From: Sphaerodactylus townsendi | Taxonomy: Eukaryota | NCBI RefSeq assembly: GCF_021028975.2 | Contig: NC_059436.1 | Span: 58,900,001 to 58,964,000, forward strand | DNA: 64,000 nucleotides | Direction of reading: 5' to 3' | Shown: piece after piece, positions 26,813 through 39,800 of the stretch | Position numbering within the stretch: position 1 is the first letter of the stretch | How the letters are laid out: each line of letters starts with the position of its first letter | Notes under the pieces: model-generated | The model's input: only the letters and a program-made list of their open reading frames with translations | Database searches by the model: none | Told to the model about the DNA's origin: nothing | Translations under genes and position numbers: made by a program

Positions 26813-27361
26813 AGGCACAATGAAATGCTTTAATGAGGCGGGGGACTCTGATGTCATCTGCATTCACCCACTCATTCTGTCCAGGTGTATAGCCTTTCCA
26901 GGATACCAAGTGTTGCAAGTGGTTATGATAGATGTGAGAGTCCAGCACGTCCTGCACTTTGAAATGTTTGGCCCCATCAATACAATACATAGTCACATTC
27001 CTGCGAGTGGGGTGGGACTGTGTTGGGCTTCGGCCTGGTTGGGGCGGGGGGGGGGGGGGCTGTGAATCCTTTGACCAGTTTCTGTGGAGGGTGGTCGTGC
27101 GCAGCCGGCGGGGAGGGCCATATTGCTGTGTCTTGTCCTGCTAAAAGCACTCCAACCCCAGCTACTTCCACCCCAGTGGCTAAACCAGCCAAGCCATCTA
27201 AGCCGCCGCCGAAAGGGGGTGCCCATGCAGTGGCTCCCCACACTGATGGAGGGGATCAGCCAATTCCTTGGAAACCTCCCATGCCGGAACGGGTGAGTGA
27301 AGCTATCATCCTACCCCTTGTTCTGACTAACGGGCCTGGATGCCCAAAATTAGTGGTTCAA

Positions 27362-28993
27362 AATTAGATGGTATTCCTGGTCGGGTGTTAAAGGAATGCG
27401 CTAACCAACTGGCTGGTGTTTTTACTGGGATCTTTAATCGATCTTTATCCCAGTCCACCATTCCATCTTGTTTGAAGGCTTCCATCATTGTTCCACTACC
27501 AAAGAGATTTCCTGCTGACAATCTTCAGGATTATAGACCAGTGGCACTCACCCCCATCATCATGAAGTGTTTTGAAAAACTGGTCCATAGGCATATTAGT
27601 TCTTGCCTTCCAGATACATTTGATAAAGCGGCATCAGGTTCAAGCATATCGGACCAAAACAGATCTACGGAGGACGCCATTGTTACCATTAGTCTCCCCA
27701 CACTGCTTTGACGCATCTGGAAACAACAGGGGAATTATGTAACGAATGCTCTTCTGGACTTTAGTTCACTTATTTAATACGCTGTATCTTGCCACAAAGA
27801 CTGGTGACAGTAAACTTTGTGGGATCTTGGACTCTCAAGATTTCAATCTGTTTTGTGGATTAAAGGGGACTTCTTGTCTAGGACGATCCCAGAGGGTTAG
27901 AGCTACAGGAAGATCGGGTTTCCTCAGTTCTTACTTCCTAAATATGGGAATGCCACAGGGTTGTGTGTTGAGTCCCTTTATTGTTCTCCCCTCCTTTATA
28001 TACATATAGATTGTACTCCTGTCTATCATAGGTAAATACCACCATTATCAAATTTGCCGCATTGACCTTAATAACGGTGGGTGGGGCTCATCTCTGGAGG
28101 GGATGAGTCTGCCTATCGGTGCGAGGTGGTAATTCCGACTGCTCTCATGGTGCAGTGGAAAATAACCCTGGTTCTTAATACTAAACAAGACAAAAGAGCT
28201 TATAGTGGACTATAGAAGGGGAATAGTTCAGAAATTCAGCCTCTTGGACTATAAATGGACATCAGAAGTAGGCGGGTAGGCTAGTTTTAAATTTCCTGGT
28301 GTTATGATTAAAGAGGACTTAACCTGGGGCATACAGACTGGCCGCTGTGGTTGAAGAAGGCTCCAGCAAAGAACTGTACTTTCATTCTGAGGACTTTGCT
28401 AAGGAAAGCTAACAACTGGATGGAAAACTCCTCTGAGGGTGTCCTTTACCGGCTGTGCTATAGAGAGTGTCTTAACCTACTGCATCTGTGTGTTTGGTTC
28501 TCCAGTTGCACAGTGGCAGATGAGGAGAGGCGCTCCAAAGGGTGATCTACTACCGCACAAAGGATTATCGGCTGCCCTCTTCCCTCACTTGGAAGAAATC
28601 TATATAATTCTCAAGTTTTCCAAAAAAAAAGCCCAAAATATTCTGATAGGATCCGCCTCATCCAGCACACTCTCTTTTTGAACCAAGCTACTGCATCTGG
28701 TAGGCGATACAGGACTATCAAATCTAGGACAAAGAGGCTTAGAGACAGCTTTTACTCTAGAGCTGTGGCTATGCTAAACTCCCCGGCTTCATGTTGATGT
28801 GTTTGGGGCTGTGTAGGGATGGGTGGAGGAAGGGGGAAGTGAGGATGATGTATGAGTCTGAAAGTGTATGAGTATGATGTATTGTATGAAATTGTATGAG
28901 TATGATGTATGAGTCTGAAATTGTGTGCATCGAGGAATGCTGCTGTAAATTTCGTTGTGTGTGCACAATGACAATAAATGCTTATGCTTATGC
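27362..28993 (+). mobile_element. 5'-truncated Rex1/Babar LINE
   Basis: DGIPGRVLKECANQLAGVFT, DYRPVALTPIIMKCFEKLV, PQGCVLSP, IESVLTY; AATAAA plus (TGCTTA)n tail; TTCAA on both sides. Confidence 0.9.
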
Positions 28994-29649
28994 TTCAAGC
29001 CCTAGTTGAATAGGCTGCTCTCATTGTTTAATACACCCCCGTTTGGTGGAAGCACTTGGTCTGCAGCCTGTTTTATTAACAGAGACTATTCGGTTTGACC
29101 AAATGGACGGCAGTCCTCTGGGCGACGCACCCGTTACTTCTTGCACCCCAAAGATTCTGGCCAATTGTGAGGGGCATTGGGAATGCTGTAGCTTTATACA
29201 ATAGACCTTTATTGGCATAAGATACAAAAGCGTGATTATAGACCATCACTAAATTTAAAAGAGTTGTACATGGCGTCTATGAGTAGTTTTACATTCTAAA
29301 ATCACACTTCATTTATAAAAATAACGTAGATTAAAAAATTTTGTCCATTCCATTGTACACGGGATTGTGAACAGGTATAGTAAAACTACACTTAAAAGAC
29401 AGGATTAAGATATTCGTTATTCATAGCCTATTTACTAAAAAGGTATAGCCTTCCCCAAGATCTATAAATTGTATATACTAATTAATACTATAAATTAATT
29501 AAATTTCCATAAAATGCAATAAATAACAGTGAGCTCCTTATAAACACCTTCTAAAATACCCCAGGAGTATCAGAGGTGTGGAGTATTTCACATTTAAATA
29601 GTTTTGTACTTGCCTATTTTACATACCTCTTAGGGACATGACTTGCAGC

Positions 29650-32600
29650 AAATAATTGGCTATTCTCCCAAGTATAGAAGGATTATTACTGTTTAACAAT
29701 TTTGGGATTGATATTTTGGGGGGCACATTTCCCATTATCCAATTTGGTAAGTACTAAAAGAAGCTTCCCTCTGGGGATTATATTTTTGGGCAATAAGTAA
29801 CATAAAATGTGGTCCAATCGTTTCCACATAACTTAATGGTGGGACAGAAAGGAGCATAGTCCTATGTGATAGAGGCCGCTTCTCAATCCCGGCTCTTTAC
29901 AAAAGAGGCAGGAGGGAAAAAACATTGCATCCTGGTCTCGAGTCAGTACCCTAAAAGCCGTTGTTTAGAATCCGGGATTTGTAGCATTAAGTATTTGTGT
30001 GCCATCGTGCCAGGCTCAGTGGTTTATACCAAAGTACAATGGGGAGCATGTTGTTGTTGCACGATTAAGGATTGCTAGATGTTGATATCTCCCTGATCCT
30101 TCATATAATAGTCTAAAGTTTCGGTAATTAGGTTATATATTTGTTGGGGGTCCTTCAATACCAACTCCTCTAATGAGAAACCCAATGAATTGAGTTTACC
30201 ATTGATTATATTCCACAACTCTAAGCTTTGGACCTCAACTAAAGCCCTATGCAGTAGGCTTCCGTGTTGTAGCTTGAAAAGCATATCTTTATCCAAAACT
30301 TTAAAGGGTAAGTAGCCCAGAAGCCCTGGTAGTTAATAAGGTGCATGCCCGCTACCAAGCATAGCACCCCATAGTAAGGCCACACAATGTGGGACTCCAA
30401 ATATTTTGTAAGAGAAATGCTGATTGTACCTTTTTCAACCGCTTGTTGGACCAAAGCGGTAATCCAGATGGAACCTCGGTAAAGGAGTTGTTTGCAAGAC
30501 TTTTTTTGGCCTGGAAGACCTTTTGAAAATAGCAGAGGGAATATGGCTTTTGGCCTTTGGAGTAGAAAAAAAGTTATTCCACTGCATTTATTGTGACCAG
30601 TATCCCTTTCCACCGCTGGCATTTCTATGAGTGTACCCATGTTGGTGTTGAATTCCCCAAGATGGATCCTCTAGGTATTTCGTTATGATTTAACCTGTTC
30701 TATGTCCTTTCCGTGCCTATAGACCATTTATGGATTTTAGTAGTCTATTCAGAAAAGACCATTGATTTTTTAGGTTTTTCGCAAGTGGTATTGATAATAT
30801 TTGCTAAAGAAGCTGTTAGTTTGTGCAATTCTCGCGCACATTTACATTTGACCATAAGAAGGTTTGAGAATCCAGCTCTAGTTCTTGAGAGTAGAATTGC
30901 ATCATCCTGTATAAAGCAGGATGGGAGTTGGGATGTTACTCTTAGACTGGACAACATGTGTTTATTTGCTGTTAAAGTTGGAGCCAAATCATTTAGAAAC
31001 AGATTAAAACAACGTGAGGGCCAAAATACACTTCTTGTTTTTTTACACCGGGTTGTTGTTAAAATTTTTGGAGTGAGTTATTCTCCTCTTGTGCACACCT
31101 TCACCTGGGAATAAGATTTTATAGGTGTAATAGTCTTATCAAAGAGAGTAGTCTATTTTCTTAGCAATTCCCCAGTAAGGGTTCAAGTTTTTTAAGCCAT
31201 AGAGCTTGTTTCTTTTCAATGCAGCACAGATGAGAGATCGAACGCCCCCTGTAAATCAAGAAAGGCAATATATACAGTTTGGAGCGACCTCTTCCTGATG
31301 TCATTTAGCTCAGGAAAAAGGAATTAGAATCAAGGAGTAAACAATGATGTTCAACGTAGCAAATTACCCTTTCCTAAAACCAATGTGTTCTAAGCTACCT
31401 AATGACATTTTATTCTGCTCAATCCACTTTTGTAGGCGATTGAGCAGGAGACTTTGCATACAATTTGCACCATACCTGCTACTGATAACAGGCTAATTGG
31501 CTCTCTATAAGGAAGGTGTAGCGCAGTGGTAACCGTTAGGATCCTACCTTTCTTATAAATTGGAACAATAACAGCCATTGGTCCTCAAATCCCCAGCATT
31601 TACTGCCACGTGTTAGTGATCTCGGTGAAAGAGAGTTTTTTGCTAATACTCAGGTGACCCACTTCAGTCCACATGATTCTCTTTAAATCTCGGAAATTTC
31701 TGGGGGGGGAGCTGGTCAGGTCCAGATGATTTATAAGGTTTTAGATGTCTAATAAGATTTTTTTATTTCTAACTCCGTGACTGGTGGCCAAAAGGGTTCA
31801 CTGATCAAATAGTCAATGTCAGGAGGTGAAGTTTCCGCAGACAGTCCCTGGAAATATTGACTAAAATAATCAAACCATTGACTTGGACGTATAGTGTTAC
31901 AGAGGGAAGAGTGACTGCTCGTTCTTTTGGCTACTATCTGGCAAAATTTCCTGGTATTCTTATCTCTCGCTGCTCGTATAAGAGCATCCCATTCATCTTG
32001 TACATCCCATTCATCTTTAAGTGATTGTGTTGGAGACGATGTGCTAATGCAGATTTTAAAGCAAAATAGTCAGTTGGAAGATTGACTTCATTGGTTGTAG
32101 TATGTTCAGAGTAGATATTTCTTAGCTGGACCTTTATTCCTCAACATTCATCATCAAATATTGCTTTCTTATGTCCGTCCTGATATTGTATATTGCTTGT
32201 CTTTTGTCCCTCCATATAATCAGCTATGTGTCTCACCAGATTGTCATATTTCTCTATGAGTACAGAAGGTGACTCGGAAGTTAAAATTTGCTGTTTGAGT
32301 TCTTTCATTTTTGGCATGGCAAAAAAAGTGTTAAACTTCAATCGAAAGGATTTGTTCCAACGTACTATTGGTAAAGTGCAGTTGGTTTCTGTATTCTCCA
32401 GTATGTCAGGAGCCTCAGAGAGAAGTGTTAATTTGAGTGGTAAATGATCACTCCATGTTTGATGACTAATTTGATAGTTGACAATATATTGAAAAATGGG
32501 CTGGGAAACCAGAATATGATCTGGAGAACTACAACCACGAGATGAAAGATACGTGTATTCTCCTGCGTTTTGAAATTTGGTTAATCCTGTGAGATTGATT

Positions 32601-33211
32601 AAATCAAAATATAAGCTTAATAAAGTAAGTTGGTCACCTGCTGCATTTCGAATTTGGTCTTTGCATCTTCTTCTCAATGCAAAGTGCCATGGGAGAGATT
32701 CTATATCTAAATCCATGTATTGCTGTAAATATGCTTCATTATCACCAAGTCTGGCATTCCAGTCTCCTGCTAATATTAAAGATGCCTGAGGATGTTGAGA
32801 TAATATATCCTGTAAATATTCTGTGAATTTGTCCCAATGACACTTAATTTCATCTTTCGTTGATCCAGGTGGGATATATATATTAATTAATATCCATGGG
32901 GGGGACTTATCCCTCAGTATAAGCACGTGAGCAATTTGGTCACAGTGTGGACCAGTATTGTAGGATAATCGTCTCTCAGCTTTGAGTAATATTGCCAAAC
33001 CTGCCTGGTATCTTCCTTTTCCACTTATTCTGTATGCTGGCAGTGGGATTGTGATGTAATTTCTGAGGTGGGGAGTACCCGGGTCCCAGGTTTCTTGGAG
33101 ACAGATAATGTCATATCTTGATAAAAAACTAATTACATCTGGGTTGTAGGATTTACTGCGCCATCCTGCAACATTCCAGGAAAGTATTTTTAAAGTTGAT
33201 GGAGAACTTAG
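29650..33211 (-). pseudogene. LINE ORF2: APE endonuclease open 33211-32141; RT region frameshifted (possibly sequence errors)
   Basis: Manual translation from 33211: LSSPSTLKILSWNVAGWRSK...CLQETW..., continuing into ORF 32141-32998. Confidence 0.85.
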
Positions 33212-34816
33212 TCAATCTTCATGATGTATTTCATCCAAGGTCCTGGTGGGATCGAAGAACACACATCCATTTGGGCTATTCTCATGGAGTCTTAATCCCG
33301 TTTGGGGTTTATTATCAAATTCATACTCCCGATCAAAGGGTGCGATTTTCTGTGCATTATTCTGTGTATTCGGTATATTATCTCTGATCTCGTGAGAGAT
33401 ACCATAATTCCCATCTATAGGTGGGTCAATTCCAGGGCTCTTCTTTGATGATTGACACTCCATAGGGACTGCTTGTGTAGATGAAGGGAATATATGTTGA
33501 ATTTCAGCAAGTTCTTGTGCCCACGATTTCCCTGTTTTTTTGTCCTCTTGAGCATAATTTAACACTCGGCTTGGCCATCTATCAATTTCCAACTCAGGGA
33601 ATGGTATTGTGCGGATCTCTTGCCCAACCAACTTTGGGCTAGAGGGTTTGTTGTTTTTGTCTGCTGGCGATAACATAACTAATAAAAGGGAGGGTTCTAA
33701 GCTATTTGCTAGAACTCTTTGTGGCTTGCACATCTTTGAAGTGTCCATGGTGCTCCTTTCTGGACTCAAGCATGTTGCATCATGCCTATTAAGAATGCGA
33801 TTTTGCTCCCTTTCCTTCTCCAATTCCATCCCATGAAAGTCTTGCATACCGATCACCCTTTCCTGCGTTTGTTTCTTTGCGCTGGGACTAGGATGCTTCA
33901 TTACTTCCTTAGCCGGCTGCATTCCTGTCTTGTAAATGTCTGTTTCCTTATCGAGTTCCAAGGTAGTTTTATTCTCATGCCTTTTTTGTGTGGATGATTT
34001 CTTGTAGATTAATGGTTGTATGATGGTATTTTTAAAAACCCGGGATGGAATCAAGCCTTTAGATACTAACCGAGCTCTTCTGTGCAATAGCTTTGCAGGA
34101 ATTCTAGATGAATTAAAAGTTAGCAAGACTCTCAATTGATGATTTCCATTGTCCATCATTTCTATTGAGCGTAGATTAACATAATGCATATCTTCTTTTA
34201 GTAATATGCTAAGATGGTGCTTAGCCAAATAAATTTTACTCCAGTCAGGGACTATGCCTCTGTATTTACCAATGGTTAAACAGATTTTATTGGGTAAGAA
34301 TAGCAGGTTGCAGGCATTGCTGTCTGGTCTGCTTTTCTGATGGGGTTTGAGGCTTGTGCCTTTAATAGGAGTGGTCTTGATGGGACTAGTCTGAGGCTTG
34401 CTTTGAGCTGTTAAATGGTCTTCAGTGCGTTCTTGCTTTTTGGCGTCCATTATTGCATTCATTTTGCCATTTAACAGTTTAAGCTCATTATATATGTATT
34501 CAACTGTCCCCACTAAGAGAGACACAAGGCTAACTAATTCTTGCCTGTCGTCTGATAGCATAATATTACTGGCTGCACTCCCAGTTGCAGTAATTGGTGC
34601 ATTCTGCTCATTTGTAGTTTTACTAGTAGACATTCCTGTTTCAATTTCTTCTGATAAGCTTTCAAGGGAGTTTTCATCTCCCAACACTGAATCATTATCA
34701 GCTAACGCCTCATAACGATTTGCTATTGGGATTTGGAAAAAGTCCCGTATTTTAGGTTGTTTAGAAATGGGAGGAGAGGTCTCATCTTTCTCTCTGGTCC
34801 GTTTTTTACTCCCCAT
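33212..34816 (-). CDS. LINE ORF1 protein, 534 aa from the first ATG, intact
   Basis: Uninterrupted ORF; basic N-terminus MGSKKRTREK; IPIANRYEAL motif; short coiled-coil-like segment. Confidence 0.8.
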   Translation of the reverse strand: MGSKKRTREKDETSPPISKQPKIRDFFQIPIANRYEALADNDSVLGDENSLESLSEEIETGMSTSKTTNEQNAPITATGSAASNIMLSDDRQELVSLVSLLVGTVEYIYNELKLLNGKMNAIMDAKKQERTEDHLTAQSKPQTSPIKTTPIKGTSLKPHQKSRPDSNACNLLFLPNKICLTIGKYRGIVPDWSKIYLAKHHLSILLKEDMHYVNLRSIEMMDNGNHQLRVLLTFNSSRIPAKLLHRRARLVSKGLIPSRVFKNTIIQPLIYKKSSTQKRHENKTTLELDKETDIYKTGMQPAKEVMKHPSPSAKKQTQERVIGMQDFHGMELEKEREQNRILNRHDATCLSPERSTMDTSKMCKPQRVLANSLEPSLLLVMLSPADKNNKPSSPKLVGQEIRTIPFPELEIDRWPSRVLNYAQEDKKTGKSWAQELAEIQHIFPSSTQAVPMECQSSKKSPGIDPPIDGNYGISHEIRDNIPNTQNNAQKIAPFDREYEFDNKPQTGLRLHENSPNGCVFFDPTRTLDEIHHED

Positions 34817-36866
34817 TTTAAGTGAGCTGTTCTTCACAAGAGGTGTAGAAATTTAGAAAGTTATAAATAGCTGATAAGAAAAGAAAATAACAAGCCTTAT
34901 TGGAGCTAGTTTTCGTGCTGCCGCTCCCAGGATGCCGGACTGAAGTTTGGTGGAAGCACTTGGTCTGCAGCCTGTTTTATTAACAGAGACTATTCGGTTT
35001 GACCAAATGGACGGCAGTCCTCTGGGCGACGCACCCGTTACTTCTTGCACCCCAAAGATTCTGGCCAATTGTGAGGGGCATTGGGAATGCCGTAGCTTTA
35101 TAATTGCTCCCATATCTCAGTACCCCGTGATATTGGGATTGTCTTGGCTTATGGATCATGACCCGTCAGTGAAATGGTCTCAACGTGTTTTGCCTTTTAC
35201 CGATCCACATGAGCCCTGATCCTGAATACTTGCTTCATCCACCTGAGGGGCTCACTTGCGCAGTCTCAACCTTCTATTGACCCTGACATTCCCCTGCCGT
35301 ACCGGGATTTATGGCAGGTTTTCGAGGAGACTGAGTGTAATACCTTGCCACCCCATTATGAGACTGATTGTAAAATAGAGCTGGTTCCTGGAGCTAAGCT
35401 GCCAAAGGGTCGACTTTACCCTACGAGTCCTGCGGAGGCTGCTGAACTGCGGGCGTTCTTGGCTAAGAATTTGGTGCGTGGGTTCATCCGGAGGGCGCCC
35501 AGCAGTTTTGCCGCCCCAGTGCTGTTTGTTAAGAAGGACGGTTCTTTATGGCTGTGCACTGATTACAGAAGTCTCAACACGGTTTCTGCCTCTAACAAAT
35601 ACCCGTTGCCCCTCATTAAGGATTTACTTGCAAATTTTGGTTCCGGGTGCATTTTTACAAATTGGACTTACATGAAGCTTATTACCGGGTGCGGATGGCT
35701 GAGGGCCACGAACATTTGACTGTGTTTAATACTTGTTATGGACAATATGAATATTTAATTATGCCCTTTGGGCTCGCAGGGGCATCGTCTGTGTTCCAAA
35801 GCCTGATCAATGGAATTCTCAATGATTTGTTGTTTAAAGGCGTTGTTGTTTATTTGGATGATGTGCTGATTTATTCCAAAGATGAACAATCTCACATTGC
35901 TCTAGTTCATGAGGTTTTGTCCCGATTGTTAGCAAACTCCCTGTATGTAAAACTCTCTAAATGTGCTTTTCATAAGCCTCAGTTGGATTTTTTGGGCTAC
36001 CGCATTTTTGCCACTGGTTTGGAAATGGACCCTGCCAAGGTGGCTGATGTTACAGCTTGGACTCCTCCTAGAACTCGCAAACAACTCCAGTCTTTCCTAG
36101 GTTTCACCAATTTCTACTGTGATTTCATCCCTCACTTTCCCCCTTTGGTGCTCCCTCTAACGGACCTTCTGCGCACCAAGGGGGGGGCGTCGGCTTCCCG
36201 CCCTGGTGCTCCTTTGACTTGGAGCCCTGCTTGCCAGTGTGCGTTTGATTCCCTGAAGGGTGCTTTCACCTCTGAACCTGTTCTCGCCCACCCCAATCCC
36301 TCCTTGCCTTTTATTGTCCATGTTGATGCTTTGGATAAAGCTTTGGGGGCTGCCCTACTTCAGCAAGGGCCTTCACCCCTGTGCTTACCTCTCCCGCAAG
36401 TTCTCAGGTGCTGAACTGAATTGGACTGTTGGTGATAAGGAAACCTGTGCTATTAAGGTTGATCTCACTGTTTGGAGGCATTTCTTAGAGGGAGCGGAGC
36501 ACCCCTTCAAGGTCTGGACTGATCATAAAAATCTGGCTGCTCTCTGCTCCCTGGGCCAGCTTTCTGCCAAACAACTTCATTGGGCAGACTTTTTCACGCG
36601 CTTTCGTTTTACAGTTCATTTCTTCCCGGGCAAAACCAACTGTTTGGCTGACGCCCTTTCCTGCTTGCCAGAGGGGGAGGAGCACAAGGTGGATTTTTCA
36701 TTCTCCTGCACTATTCTCTCCCCCTCCCACTTGGGCTTGGCTGTTATCCGGTTGCAGGTGAAGACAGAGCCCCCACCATCAGTTTCTCCTCCCAGCCACC
36801 TCCTCTCCGCTTTCTTGGAGGCTGGAAAGTCCCCGGTTCCTTTGGAGGAGGGTGGTGATGGGTTGG

Positions 36867-39800
36867 TGTAAGGAATTCCAAAGAGCAGAAATAAAAGGCT
36901 TTTGGATATAAGACCGTTTATTCAGACATCTTAGAAAGCACACACACACGACATGACAGGAATGAGGCCTCCCACCCAAACTACAGGTTATAACTCAATC
37001 CCTTCCCCCTCCCTGGGCCATCCAGGCCCATCTCATGGGAGCGGAGATGCCTATCTTGCAGTCAGCAAAGATAAGCCGTCCACCAAAGGTTAAGTTTACC
37101 CGTCACGATTCTGTAGCCCGCTCGCCCGGCTGGGAGGCGATTCTGTCAAGGAGCCAGCTGGCTCTGGGGAGAGAACCAGAGCAGACCTATGCCATCCTTA
37201 CACTCTGCTTCCCCCAAGGAAAACCTCCCCGAGCTTGTCAGGAAGAGGCTTTTGTGAAGAAGAAACAGCAATGTGAGGGAGGGGGCATCAATATTTTCTG
37301 TATATGCCATTGATTATGTGCCAGGAGGGATATGCCACAACCCATGAAACCAGAAGTACTGTAGGATGATTAAGTGGAAAAAGCGGGAGTCCAGAATAGC
37401 ACTCTATTTCAAAGTGCTTGTGGCCATCAATTGCACTTAACTGGCGGGGGGTGGCTCCGGAGAGTGCGTTGCCAGGAGCATCCTGGTGGAATTTTCATGG
37501 AACCTCCTTGAGCAGAAGCTGGAATGGAAGACAGGGTGAATGTTGTCTGCTGCAACATGATTTAGAGCAGTTCCCAAAACGAGCGGTAACATCATTGATC
37601 ACCTTTAGCCATGTATCCGAAAAGGGCCCGCAAATTTCTTGCCAAGGATTTTGAATGGCACATTGCCTGCCGCGTCTCTAGGGTTTTTAGTGGAACAAAT
37701 AGACCCGCCCCAACTGCACTTATAAGGGAAGTCCGGCGGTACGCTTGTCCGCTTCCTGAACCTTTTTGTGATTGCTTGGGCCTGCTGTAAAAGGTGGAGC
37801 TGCACTGTTTTCCAACCCCTCGGCTAGCGAAGAAATCCATTTGTTTACACGAGATTCTGGAGGCTGCGAATTTACCTCTGCAGGAAGCTGGGAACAACTA
37901 TGGTGGAAGAATATGACCGACCAAGGAAACAATCTCGAACGGCAGGTCTTTTCTAGCGTGCTACTATGAATGGCATTTGTTATCACGCATACTCTGCAAA
38001 AGAAGTGCATCGCACCAATTGTCCCTGATGATAGTATAACAAGCGTAAATACTGTTCTAGCGATTCTGTTCGTCTGCGTTCTGAGTTGGCCCGTCACTTT
38101 GAAGGCGATGGTAGAAGGCGACGACGCTGGGGTGGTTCCCAACAGCTCCAGGAGAAGGCCTTCCAAAACTCAGATATGAATTAGAGGACCGCGGTTCGGA
38201 TACAACCATATAGGAGAGGAGTGTAGGCGATATAGATATGTTGGAATAAACAAGCAGAATAGGATTTAGGTTGCCGACGGCGGATGGTGGTGCAAGGGAA
38301 TAAAATGCGCCTGTTTAGAAAAAGATCCGCCACCTACCCATAAAACAGTGTTCCCGTGGCTTTCCGACAAATCGGTTATAAAATCCATGGAAAATGACTT
38401 GCCAGGGTCCCGAGATGCAACAGGGAGGGTTTGGCAATAGCCCATCGCGGCTTTCGGTATCGACTTGGCTTCCGCACAGGCGGAACACCTGCTGATATCG
38501 TGTTCAATGTCTTTGCGCATGGAAGCGCTCACCAGAACTATCGGCCGGGCCAGATTTGCAACGTGGTTCAAAACCGAAGTGCCCAGCAGGCGGGCATCAT
38601 GACATGTTGAGAACCCACCCGCCTCCGGCGAGGAGGGAGGGACGTAGAGGGGGCCATTACACTTGCCTCCCCATTTCCAAACACCATCTCCTCTAAACCC
38701 AGTTGTGAATCTCCTTCCTCGCCACGACCAGTTACATGCGGAATTCCCGCCTCCTTGAATCCCTGGAGGAGAGGGGAGGCGATGTTAGGGATGGTGTAGA
38801 CCGGAGAGGAAGGAGCTGCCGTAATTTGTGATGGGGTGACAGCTAACTGAGCTGGGAGGGAGAAAGCACGGTGCGCGGGATATCTATCTGTAGTAATGTT
38901 TCCCCCCCCTCCCCGGGAAGGCGAGGACAAGCCCGCATCAAAATACCGGTTTGTTGCTTTACCAGGAAAGAAATGGACGGTGAAAGAGAACCTGGAGAAA
39001 AAAAAATCATTAGCGCAATTGTTTAGCAGACATTTTTTTGAGTGGTGTGGACAGGGCAGCCAGATTTTTATGATCTGATAAACCTGGAAGGGGTGTTTGG
39101 CTCCTTCTAGCCAGAGGTAATAAACACTCAATACCGGCTTTGATAGCCGCGGTCTCCTTATCTCCCAATGAATTACAGCGGAGAAATACTGGCTGGGTTT
39201 AAAAACGTGCAGGACTGGCTTCACCTCCTAGAGGACACCATCCATTTGGAGTGAGAGGAATGGGTTTCACCAAAGGGACTTCGGTCTAAAACCAAGTTAA
39301 GTCGACCACTTGTGGCCTCATGAGATGCAATGGGAACAGCCCAAGTCCACAGGTCACGGAAAGCCAAGAATAGCGCGATATGTTGCTTGGGTTGGCTAAG
39401 TGTAAGTTCAAAATGGTAATGGGAGCACTGCAGCTTCACTGCTACGCATCTGGAGTGGGGTTAATGTCCCTCGGGTGCTGCTGACAGGCAGAAGCTACAT
39501 CTCCGTCCTCGAAATCTTCCTCGATAGCAGCTTTAAAACTGATCCCTGGAAGTGCGTGGACCCATGATTTACGATGGAGGCTTGGCTGAAACACCAAAGG
39601 CGTGTAGAAGAATTTGGGGTTTTGCTTCAACCCCGGACAGTCGGCAAAGGTGCCCAGGCCCCCATTGCGCAGTAAGAAGAGCCGATAATCGCCAAAGCGG
39701 CGGCGACGTTCAGGCGTGGATTTCAGCTGCCAAGCGGCAGGAGTTGGATTTGCGAGTAATTGGTGCTGGTGTGCATTGATGGCGGGTTTTAGGCGCTAGG

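Follow-up and report, generated by a model that had tools for sequence, protein, structure and literature searches.

An in-frame UGA-C junction between ORF1 and an AUG-less ORF2, conserved across a clade of vertebrate LINEs, points to stop-codon readthrough

Introduction

The way in which the second open reading frame (ORF2) of long interspersed elements (LINEs) comes to be translated from a bicistronic RNA has long been an open question. In the available text of reviews, ORF2 expression is presented only as reinitiation, possible bypassing or 2A activity (PMC5972666, PMC5009743, PMC3708506), the 2A StopGo peptide being placed within a continuous ORF in Rex1, L2, L2A, Crack, CR1 and Ingi elements (Odon et al., 2013, PMC3708506). 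Readthrough from ORF1 into ORF2 has been suggested for the Group 3 non-LTR retrotransposons (without long terminal repeats) of Paramecium tetraurelia (Guerin et al., 2017, PMC5405496). The present work concerns a stretch of 64,000 nucleotides of the Sphaerodactylus townsendi genome (GCF_021028975.2, contig NC_059436.1, positions 58,900,001 to 58,964,000 of the forward strand; hereafter the window), which carries a LINE whose ORF1 ends at a UGA and is continued, in the same frame, by an ORF2 lacking an AUG. An original prediction made from these letters proposed that the stop is read through, giving a fusion of ORF1 with both the endonuclease (EN) and the reverse transcriptase (RT) of ORF2, and programmed readthrough of this kind is, in our evaluation, the probable route of ORF2 synthesis.

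The stop-codon contexts known to permit readthrough are UGA-CUA/CGG, UAG-G and UAG-CAA (PMC3159437, PMC13517186). The available text of the latter source on readthrough does not mention retrotransposons, and four sources that mention RTEX elements (PMC11203168, PMC10294476, PMC5753468, PMC3905857) do not, in their available parts, describe the junction considered here. A literature search of limited recall, taking in neither Repbase Reports nor subscription journals nor supplements, returned no report of readthrough for vertebrate or RTEX LINEs. Studies of L1 and SART1 point to reinitiation. With its about 30 families, its young intact copies and its four-base signal, this vertebrate clade allows a direct test of a third route.

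Results

The junction in the window element and in its copies

ORF1 of the window element (33215..34816, minus strand; 534 aa, ATG at 34816) shares homology with the ORF1 of five further intact elements and ends at the TGA 33214-33212, which forms with the following codon the junction TGA-CTA (33209..33214, minus), the candidate readthrough site. As originally described, the frame goes on with CTA AGT TCT CCA, reads LSSPSTLKILSWNVAGW...CLQETW and stays open for 356 codons, down to a TGA at 32143-32141. It crosses an ATG-less in-frame spacer of 11 codons (33179..33211, minus), with whose last five codons the first EN strand of the structural model begins, and enters the APE-type EN domain of ORF2 (32444..33184, minus; AlphaFold pTM 0.73), where Pfam EEP/APE endonuclease PF03372 covers ORF2 residues 10-256 (E 6e-12). 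The absence of any ATG ahead of the EN motifs was reproduced as well, the first in-frame Met lying 154 codons beyond the EN Trp, past GDWNAR. In the AlphaFold model the first EN strand (E38-44) begins 7 codons past the stop, so translation must already be running there. The ATG at 33222, regarded initially as the only one nearby, does open an out-of-frame M-K-I-D-stop, but the same shifted frame has an ATG at 33234 and others further up.

The window copy carries a further, private stop (32141..32143, minus), which closes the open part of ORF2 and across which the frame of the sister copy L042 continues, being open over 1,010 codons; it also contains many indels, and the ORF1 stop could by the same token be a private nonsense mutation or an assembly error in a single-ORF element. 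The family-wide, bridging-contig and copy-alignment data refute this explanation, to which we assign a practically negligible probability. A DNA search for the window family gave 11 matches, and the six loci that, besides the window copy, align cleanly over the junction all read GAT-TGA-CTA (L002, L003, L005, L006 and L007, 79-94% identity, and the more distant L011); L004 was indel-ridden at the junction, L008 and L009 did not span it and L010 had TGA-CGC out of frame. A protein search of the genome, with 150 of 1,773 candidates scored and 125 fetched, yielded together with four loci from the DNA search 129 distinct loci. The EN start was placed in 121 of them (three had no N-terminal match and five no motif match), and these copies formed 33 clusters at 75% EN identity. 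Over the junction 106 of the 121 copies aligned, with 99 TGAC, 7 TGAT and no sense codon (70 TGAC and 5 TGAT among the 75 left after removal of the family representatives introduced below). The stop is kept in young copies of 99% identity and in independent contigs. Both ORFs are open around the same junction in the young intact elements L047 (509 + 1,113 aa), L061, L048, L050 and L055, and the junction of L047 was bridged by contigs from two runs of one study (run type unspecified) with no listed difference and no joint.

Thirty-one family representatives were chosen by eye, covering 29 clusters, two of which were split in two; in L101 the TGA was taken two codons above a TAA treated as private. 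In each of the four omitted single-copy clusters (L010, L020, L040, L096) a TGA occupies the expected position, but the copy has a frameshift or a truncation. Despite an EN identity of 24-74% (median 38%), the ORF1 C-terminal motif, the TGA and EN share one frame in 31/31 representatives; the base after the TGA is C in 29/31 and T (as TGC) in 2/31, and the spacer has an in-frame ATG in a single one (L132). An in-frame TGA followed by an ATG-less ORF2 is therefore confirmed as a trait of a clade of about 30 families, not a private mutation.

Conservation at the junction

Changes were counted on the EN tree of the 31 representatives. The stop bases changed 0, 0 and 0 times and position +4 twice, both times on terminal branches and from C to T before G; 12 changes were counted at each of positions +5 and +6, and 18 for the first codon past the stop as a unit. 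In the codons of the invariant SWNIAGW residues S, N, I, A and G, third positions changed synonymously 11-17 times, so there has been ample time for a neutral swap of TGA for TAA. The length of the spacer (7-35 codons) changed 12 times, the frame always being kept. Codons at +1 were CGC (10), CTA (8), CTG (3), CAT (3), CAA (2), TGC (2) and CGT, CAC and CTC (one each), with no CGG; all Arg (11/11) and Leu (12/12) codons at this position start with C; in intact ORFs the share of C-starting codons is 34% for Arg and 63% for Leu. The true terminators of ORF2, available from nine complete ORF2s out of 11 examined, were TAA in eight cases, TAG in one and TGA in none. Upstream of the stop, the C-terminal ORF1 peptide N-G-C-V-F-x-D...L-x-x-I...D (33215..33271 in the window element, minus) is conserved across families as amino acids, with free third codon positions. 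The only junction bases conserved at the nucleotide level are the TGA and the next C, the adjoining codons varying freely.

This is the pattern that selection on inefficient termination would be expected to leave, with stop identity, +4 base and frame fixed and with amino acids and later bases free. The emphasis of the original prediction on UGA-CUA needs to be narrowed accordingly in its motif: TGA followed by C is indeed conserved (31/31 and 29/31), but the signal is UGA-C (CGC, CTA, CTG, CAT and others) rather than CUA specifically. Judged as type II (UGA-CUA/CGG), the families display a single in-frame stop before a conserved, start-less downstream frame and keep UGA then C at the nucleotide level, the exact CUA occurring in 8/31.

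The same bases could have another meaning. The branch-point consensus yUnAy fits a pyrimidine followed by TGAC, and GAY-TGA-C might act as a splice branch point for an intron whose removal eliminates the stop and joins ORF1 to ORF2; a pyrimidine precedes TGAC in 24/31 families and the spacer is C/T-rich. We regard this as hardly credible and rejected it on the position and phase of the acceptors and on the absence of spliced retrocopies: in 7/31 families no AG lies far enough downstream (12 nt or more) yet ahead of the EN strand, and the first usable AGs are distributed over all three phases (12/7/5). Cis copying of a spliced ORF2 mRNA should yield copies with ORF1 joined upstream, yet none was present among the 15 copies not aligning over the junction, 13 of which start at or just past the stop. 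No joint was seen at the junction in four runs (run type unspecified), distant families use TAG-G, and the spacers of a second host, described below, are open for up to 181 codons.

The 5' ends of truncated copies bear on a further set of alternatives, namely that ORF2 derives from a separate shorter RNA, from internal entry near the junction or from a special decoding of UGA (selenocysteine, RNA editing), which taken together we hold to be very improbable. Near the stop, within 60 nt, the density of these ends is about threefold that found further upstream, which counts in favour of these alternatives. Among 108 copies, 20 lie in the 120 nt before the EN Trp and 23 in the next 420 nt upstream, and two family searches placed 8 ends no more than 60 nt from the stop, about three times the rate seen downstream. 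The excess is nevertheless small and post hoc, and is also compatible with a decay-linked cleavage at stops that a long tail follows downstream. Cleavage of the mRNA at a stop trailed by 3.5 kb could be what these ends reflect, and ORF1 swaps inflate their counts. Neither a shorter RNA nor internal entry would be offered a usable start codon ahead of the first EN strand, and the use of TAG and TAA by relatives speaks against a special decoding of UGA. Selenocysteine insertion was unsupported: the nine loci searched gave 10 Rfam matches (E up to 1), none of them a SECIS element.

Relatives in other hosts

The closest named proteins are from Podarcis, and their UniRef entries begin at a Met downstream of the SWN motif, as would be expected if no earlier ATG exists; readthrough, if true, would account for these proteins starting beyond the first EN motif. 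A metagenome scan for relatives gave 80 loci. In a second host (ERZ1739169 contigs) TGA-CT(A/G) was found in 7/8 loci examined, with a complete ORF1 of about 490 aa in L159, L161 and L189. In its spacers, which span 36-181 codons, the ORF2 frame stays open, both other frames are closed and Met residues occur at unshared positions; in L160, 129 open codons precede the first Met, a length matched by 0.7% of shuffles. Between TGA-CT(A/G) and EN, L159, L160, L161 and L189 have a Ser/Pro-rich stretch of 171-181 codons. It comes after the stop, while in the S. townsendi families the disordered stretch lies before it.

As a control, 35 metagenome loci were taken, one per distinct junction (34 with ORF1), and classified by the presence or absence of an ATG 5-25 codons before the EN motif. 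The ORF1 stop was in frame and open into ORF2 in 17/17 loci without such an ATG and in 2/17 with it (Fisher p 1.5e-7, a value overstated, the loci being kin). Contexts in the 17 ATG-less loci were TAG-G (10), TGA-CT (4), TAG-CGG, TAA-CAA and TGA-GGA (one each).

These counts also address the main rival of readthrough, AUG-independent reinitiation, in which ribosomes would terminate at the UGA and restart without an AUG at or just after it, as in L1 or caliciviruses, releasing a free ORF2 protein (ORF2p), with UGA-C serving to slow termination. Natural reinitiation keeps an AUG and tolerates any frame, whereas here it is only in the absence of the AUG that a fixed frame is seen (17/17 vs. 2/17). 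An AUG that lies on or close to the stop of ORF1 and in frame with ORF2, a feature of termination-reinitiation, is lacking from the spacer in 30 of the 31 representatives. Restart at the first codon would, it is true, preserve frame and coding constraint just as readthrough does, and caliciviral reinitiation accepts non-cognate start codons (PMC5972666). However, +1 codons are mostly CGC, CTA, CAT or CAA and offer no common near-cognate start; CTG, GTG, ACG or TTG is present in 8/31 families, and 11/31 have no near-cognate codon whatever. The failure to find a 3' structure in the 31 families agrees with reinitiation, as does the Asp before the stop in about two thirds of them, an Asp-rich end having been linked to reinitiation in CASQ2 (PMC5972666). 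Conversely, a TURBS-like UGGGA 30-100 nt upstream occurs in only 3/31, the upstream conservation is at the amino-acid level, and the contexts of distant lineages match readthrough classes. On balance we consider reinitiation unlikely.

Among the TAG-G relatives, the families L142, L143, L145-L150, L174 and L176 have in common, at codons +3 to +6, the block GGY-CRR-GAC-CCA-C, in which third positions are mostly fixed and which is a candidate stimulator. The block is reminiscent of the G-x-D/E-P stretch that follows the gammaretroviral UAG. In-frame TAG-GGG junctions were also seen in a separate branch (L195, L193, L177, L194, L202), likely from non-animal hosts, within which L195, L202 and P0020 group with a support of 0.996.

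Anatomy and classification of the element

The whole LINE extends from 34944 to 29199 on the minus strand, between the two copies of a 158-nt target-site duplication (repeat family D1), at 34945..35102 on its 5' side and 29041..29198 on its 3' side, which differ by one mismatch. Such a length is unusual with respect to the 13-61 nt duplication candidates found in 6/14 copies. The element and its 5' duplication sit inside a frameshifted Gypsy-type pol remnant (35103-36871, +; Pfam RT and RNase H). A 5' untranslated region (UTR) of 128 nt (34817..34944, minus) separates the duplication from the ORF1 ATG. Downstream of EN, the RT and C-terminal Cys/His region of ORF2 (29619..32140, minus), delimited by tblastn and by alignment to L042, contains many indels, and the 3' UTR (29199..29618, minus) ends in ATGCCAATAAAGG and a short TATTG-type tail common to the clade. 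Over 29500-31999 the window copy differs from L042 by 139 gap openings and 43 mismatches. Given its private stop and RT-region indels, the window copy is dead as assembled. Since a near-perfect target-site duplication and a clean ORF1 and EN stand beside an indel-ridden RT region, the indel pattern suggests a local assembly error. The window also has a second LINE RT fragment (27331-27711, +), which we take to be Rex1-like from its motifs. In L042, about 0.9 kb upstream of the truncated element, a short U2 snRNA-like match under the Rfam cut-off was noted (L042:2117-2185).

APE EN and RT were both matched in ORF2 of L042 and L047. With EN preceding RT, target-site duplications, no LTRs, a 3' repeat tail and 5'-truncated copies, the element is an APE-type non-LTR retrotransposon; short-repeat tails recur among its copies. 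In an RT tree (FastTree, 114 of 191 rows after omission of near-duplicates, cluster members and most plant L1-like rows) its clade had a support of 1.0 and was nested in a group supported at 0.90, whose proteins we presume, from their motifs, to be RTE-like; no named RTEX reference was included, and the clade is provisionally labelled RTEX-like. Families with an in-frame stop occupy at least four branches of this group, mixed among ATG-type families, a distribution that would fit a single or a multiple origin of the junction alike.

ORF1 of the window element matched no Pfam family above cut-off. Its AlphaFold model had a mean pLDDT of 43 and comprised a predicted long helix (residues 82-136; 34409..34573, minus; pLDDT about 60-76 in the block core), which may have a coiled-coil role, and a predicted RRM-like domain (residues about 170-265; 34022..34309, minus) with a pLDDT of about 70. 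When this domain was searched with VIA-align, the top rows were mostly RRMs, with middling Z values (6-7.5) and an rmsd of about 3 A over 70-90 residues. An ESM Atlas search with ORF1 gave a top score of 0.86, which serves as a lead only. About 250 residues after the helix and the RRM-like domain are predicted to be disordered and, when the read-through junction was modelled, the ORF1 C-terminal peptide was not confidently packed on EN (pLDDT under 50). Some subfamilies with the same ORF2 carry different ORF1s (L043/L068 vs. L059/L069/L021; L087 vs. L091). In these cases the switch occurs some 60-90 nt ahead of the stop, meaning that the conserved final 20-25 codons of ORF1 travel with ORF2.

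Discussion

From the anatomy and the conservation observed across the clade we infer the readthrough itself, its rate and the fate of its product. Most ribosomes would stop at the UGA and release the ORF1 protein (ORF1p), with its predicted long helix and RRM-like domain, while a few percent would decode it with an amino acid, usually Trp, Arg or Cys where UGA is read through, and continue to a product of about 1,650 aa. Such a low rate of readthrough would keep the ORF1p:ORF2p ratio high. By way of ORF1 multimers and the disordered linker of about 250 residues, the fusion may keep the enzyme attached to its own RNA, in a Gag-Pol-like manner. No protease is encoded in the element, so that the fusion would either function uncut or be cleaved by the host. 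The fusion advanced in the original prediction is thereby supported as a reading of the data: neither sense codons in place of the stop (0/106) nor a regular ORF2 ATG in the spacer (1/31) came to light. It would be a protein unreported for vertebrate LINEs in the literature searched. Fused longer proteins were sought in databases, with only two distant matches, which is weak evidence.

A number of observations weigh against readthrough. Folding of the 150 nt 3' of the stop, proposed together with the original prediction, revealed no stimulatory hairpin in the window element (z +0.28), and of nine folds of this length only that of L150 reached z -2.2. Nor was a conserved stem-loop found from +4 to +103 in the 31 families (mean z -0.28; z < -2 in 2/31, like other windows), while 3' structures increased alphavirus readthrough 3- to 14-fold (PMC3159437). 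A TCCTG/CAGGA stem in SWNxAG was discarded, being not conserved, with third positions free. The clade would then constitute a large natural set of UGA-C contexts seemingly working without a 3' hairpin. The most frequent +1 codon is CGC (10/31), not the textbook CUA or CGG. The evidence that the spacer evolves as coding sequence, in which pS exceeds pN in 11/12 pairs, comes from short, protein-guided alignments that include five EN codons. The families are kin and their counts non-independent, the representatives were picked by eye, and the 34 control loci amount to perhaps ten lineages. Beyond L132, in-frame spacer ATGs exist in L131, L139 and L181, and in the second host L170 has TGA-AGA and an ATG. 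Finally, L1 ORF2 translation survives loss of its AUG (PMC5009743, PMC13705589, PMC1965478): as mammalian L1 retrotransposes with the ORF2 AUG mutated, a missing AUG alone is no proof of readthrough.

Considered together, the junction contexts agree with Beier-Grimm types II and III and are similar to type I (PMC3159437, PMC13517186). With UGA-C in the vertebrate clade and UAG-G plus GGY-CRR-GAC-CCA-C in distant lineages, we lean slightly towards readthrough being the standard ORF2 route in a large, old branch of the RTE group.

Among described elements, RTEX (RTE-X, RTE superfamily) is similar in its two ORFs, its APE-RT with a C-terminal Cys/His motif, its short-repeat tail and its variable or long target-site duplications, and occurs in amniotes (PMC5753468). 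Some RTEX carry an ORF1 esterase (PMC3905857), unlike the ORF1 described here, and the comparison was made with no named RTEX sequence in the tree. APE-type LINEs with 2A likewise have a virus-like recoding near the ORF2 N-terminus (PMC3708506), but no D(V/I)ExNPGP motif was seen at the junctions of the surveyed families. Mammalian L1 and silkworm SART1 share the bicistronic RNA and the low ORF2 output (PMC5972666, PMC3708506, PMC5009743, PMC13705589, PMC1965478); they use an ORF2 AUG and termination-reinitiation, across a 63-nt spacer in L1 and a UAAUG overlap in SART1, whereas the element studied here has no AUG and a fixed frame.

In ciliates TGA is the sole stop, and its identity is therefore uninformative there, while in the present clade TGA-C is kept across about 30 families despite free alternatives. 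Paramecium Group 3 is a ciliate-specific clade, for which the suggestion of readthrough was based on consensus sequences, the available text containing neither a context analysis nor a test; that suggestion came earlier (PMC5405496), and the present case adds an in-frame TGA junction across a vertebrate clade. Similar in arrangement are gammaretroviral Gag-Pol and alphavirus nsP3/nsP4, where one in-frame stop, in a UGA-C or UAG-G context, likewise separates an abundant upstream protein from the polymerase (PMC3159437, PMC13517186). By comparison, the present elements are non-LTR retrotransposons without a protease, their TGA-C families have no detected 3' stem-loop, and the +1 codon is more varied (CGC, CTA, CTG, CAT). 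If readthrough holds true, the active retrotransposase would be an uncut ORF1-EN-RT fusion, the equivalent of Gag-Pol in a non-LTR element, with cis preference built into the protein.

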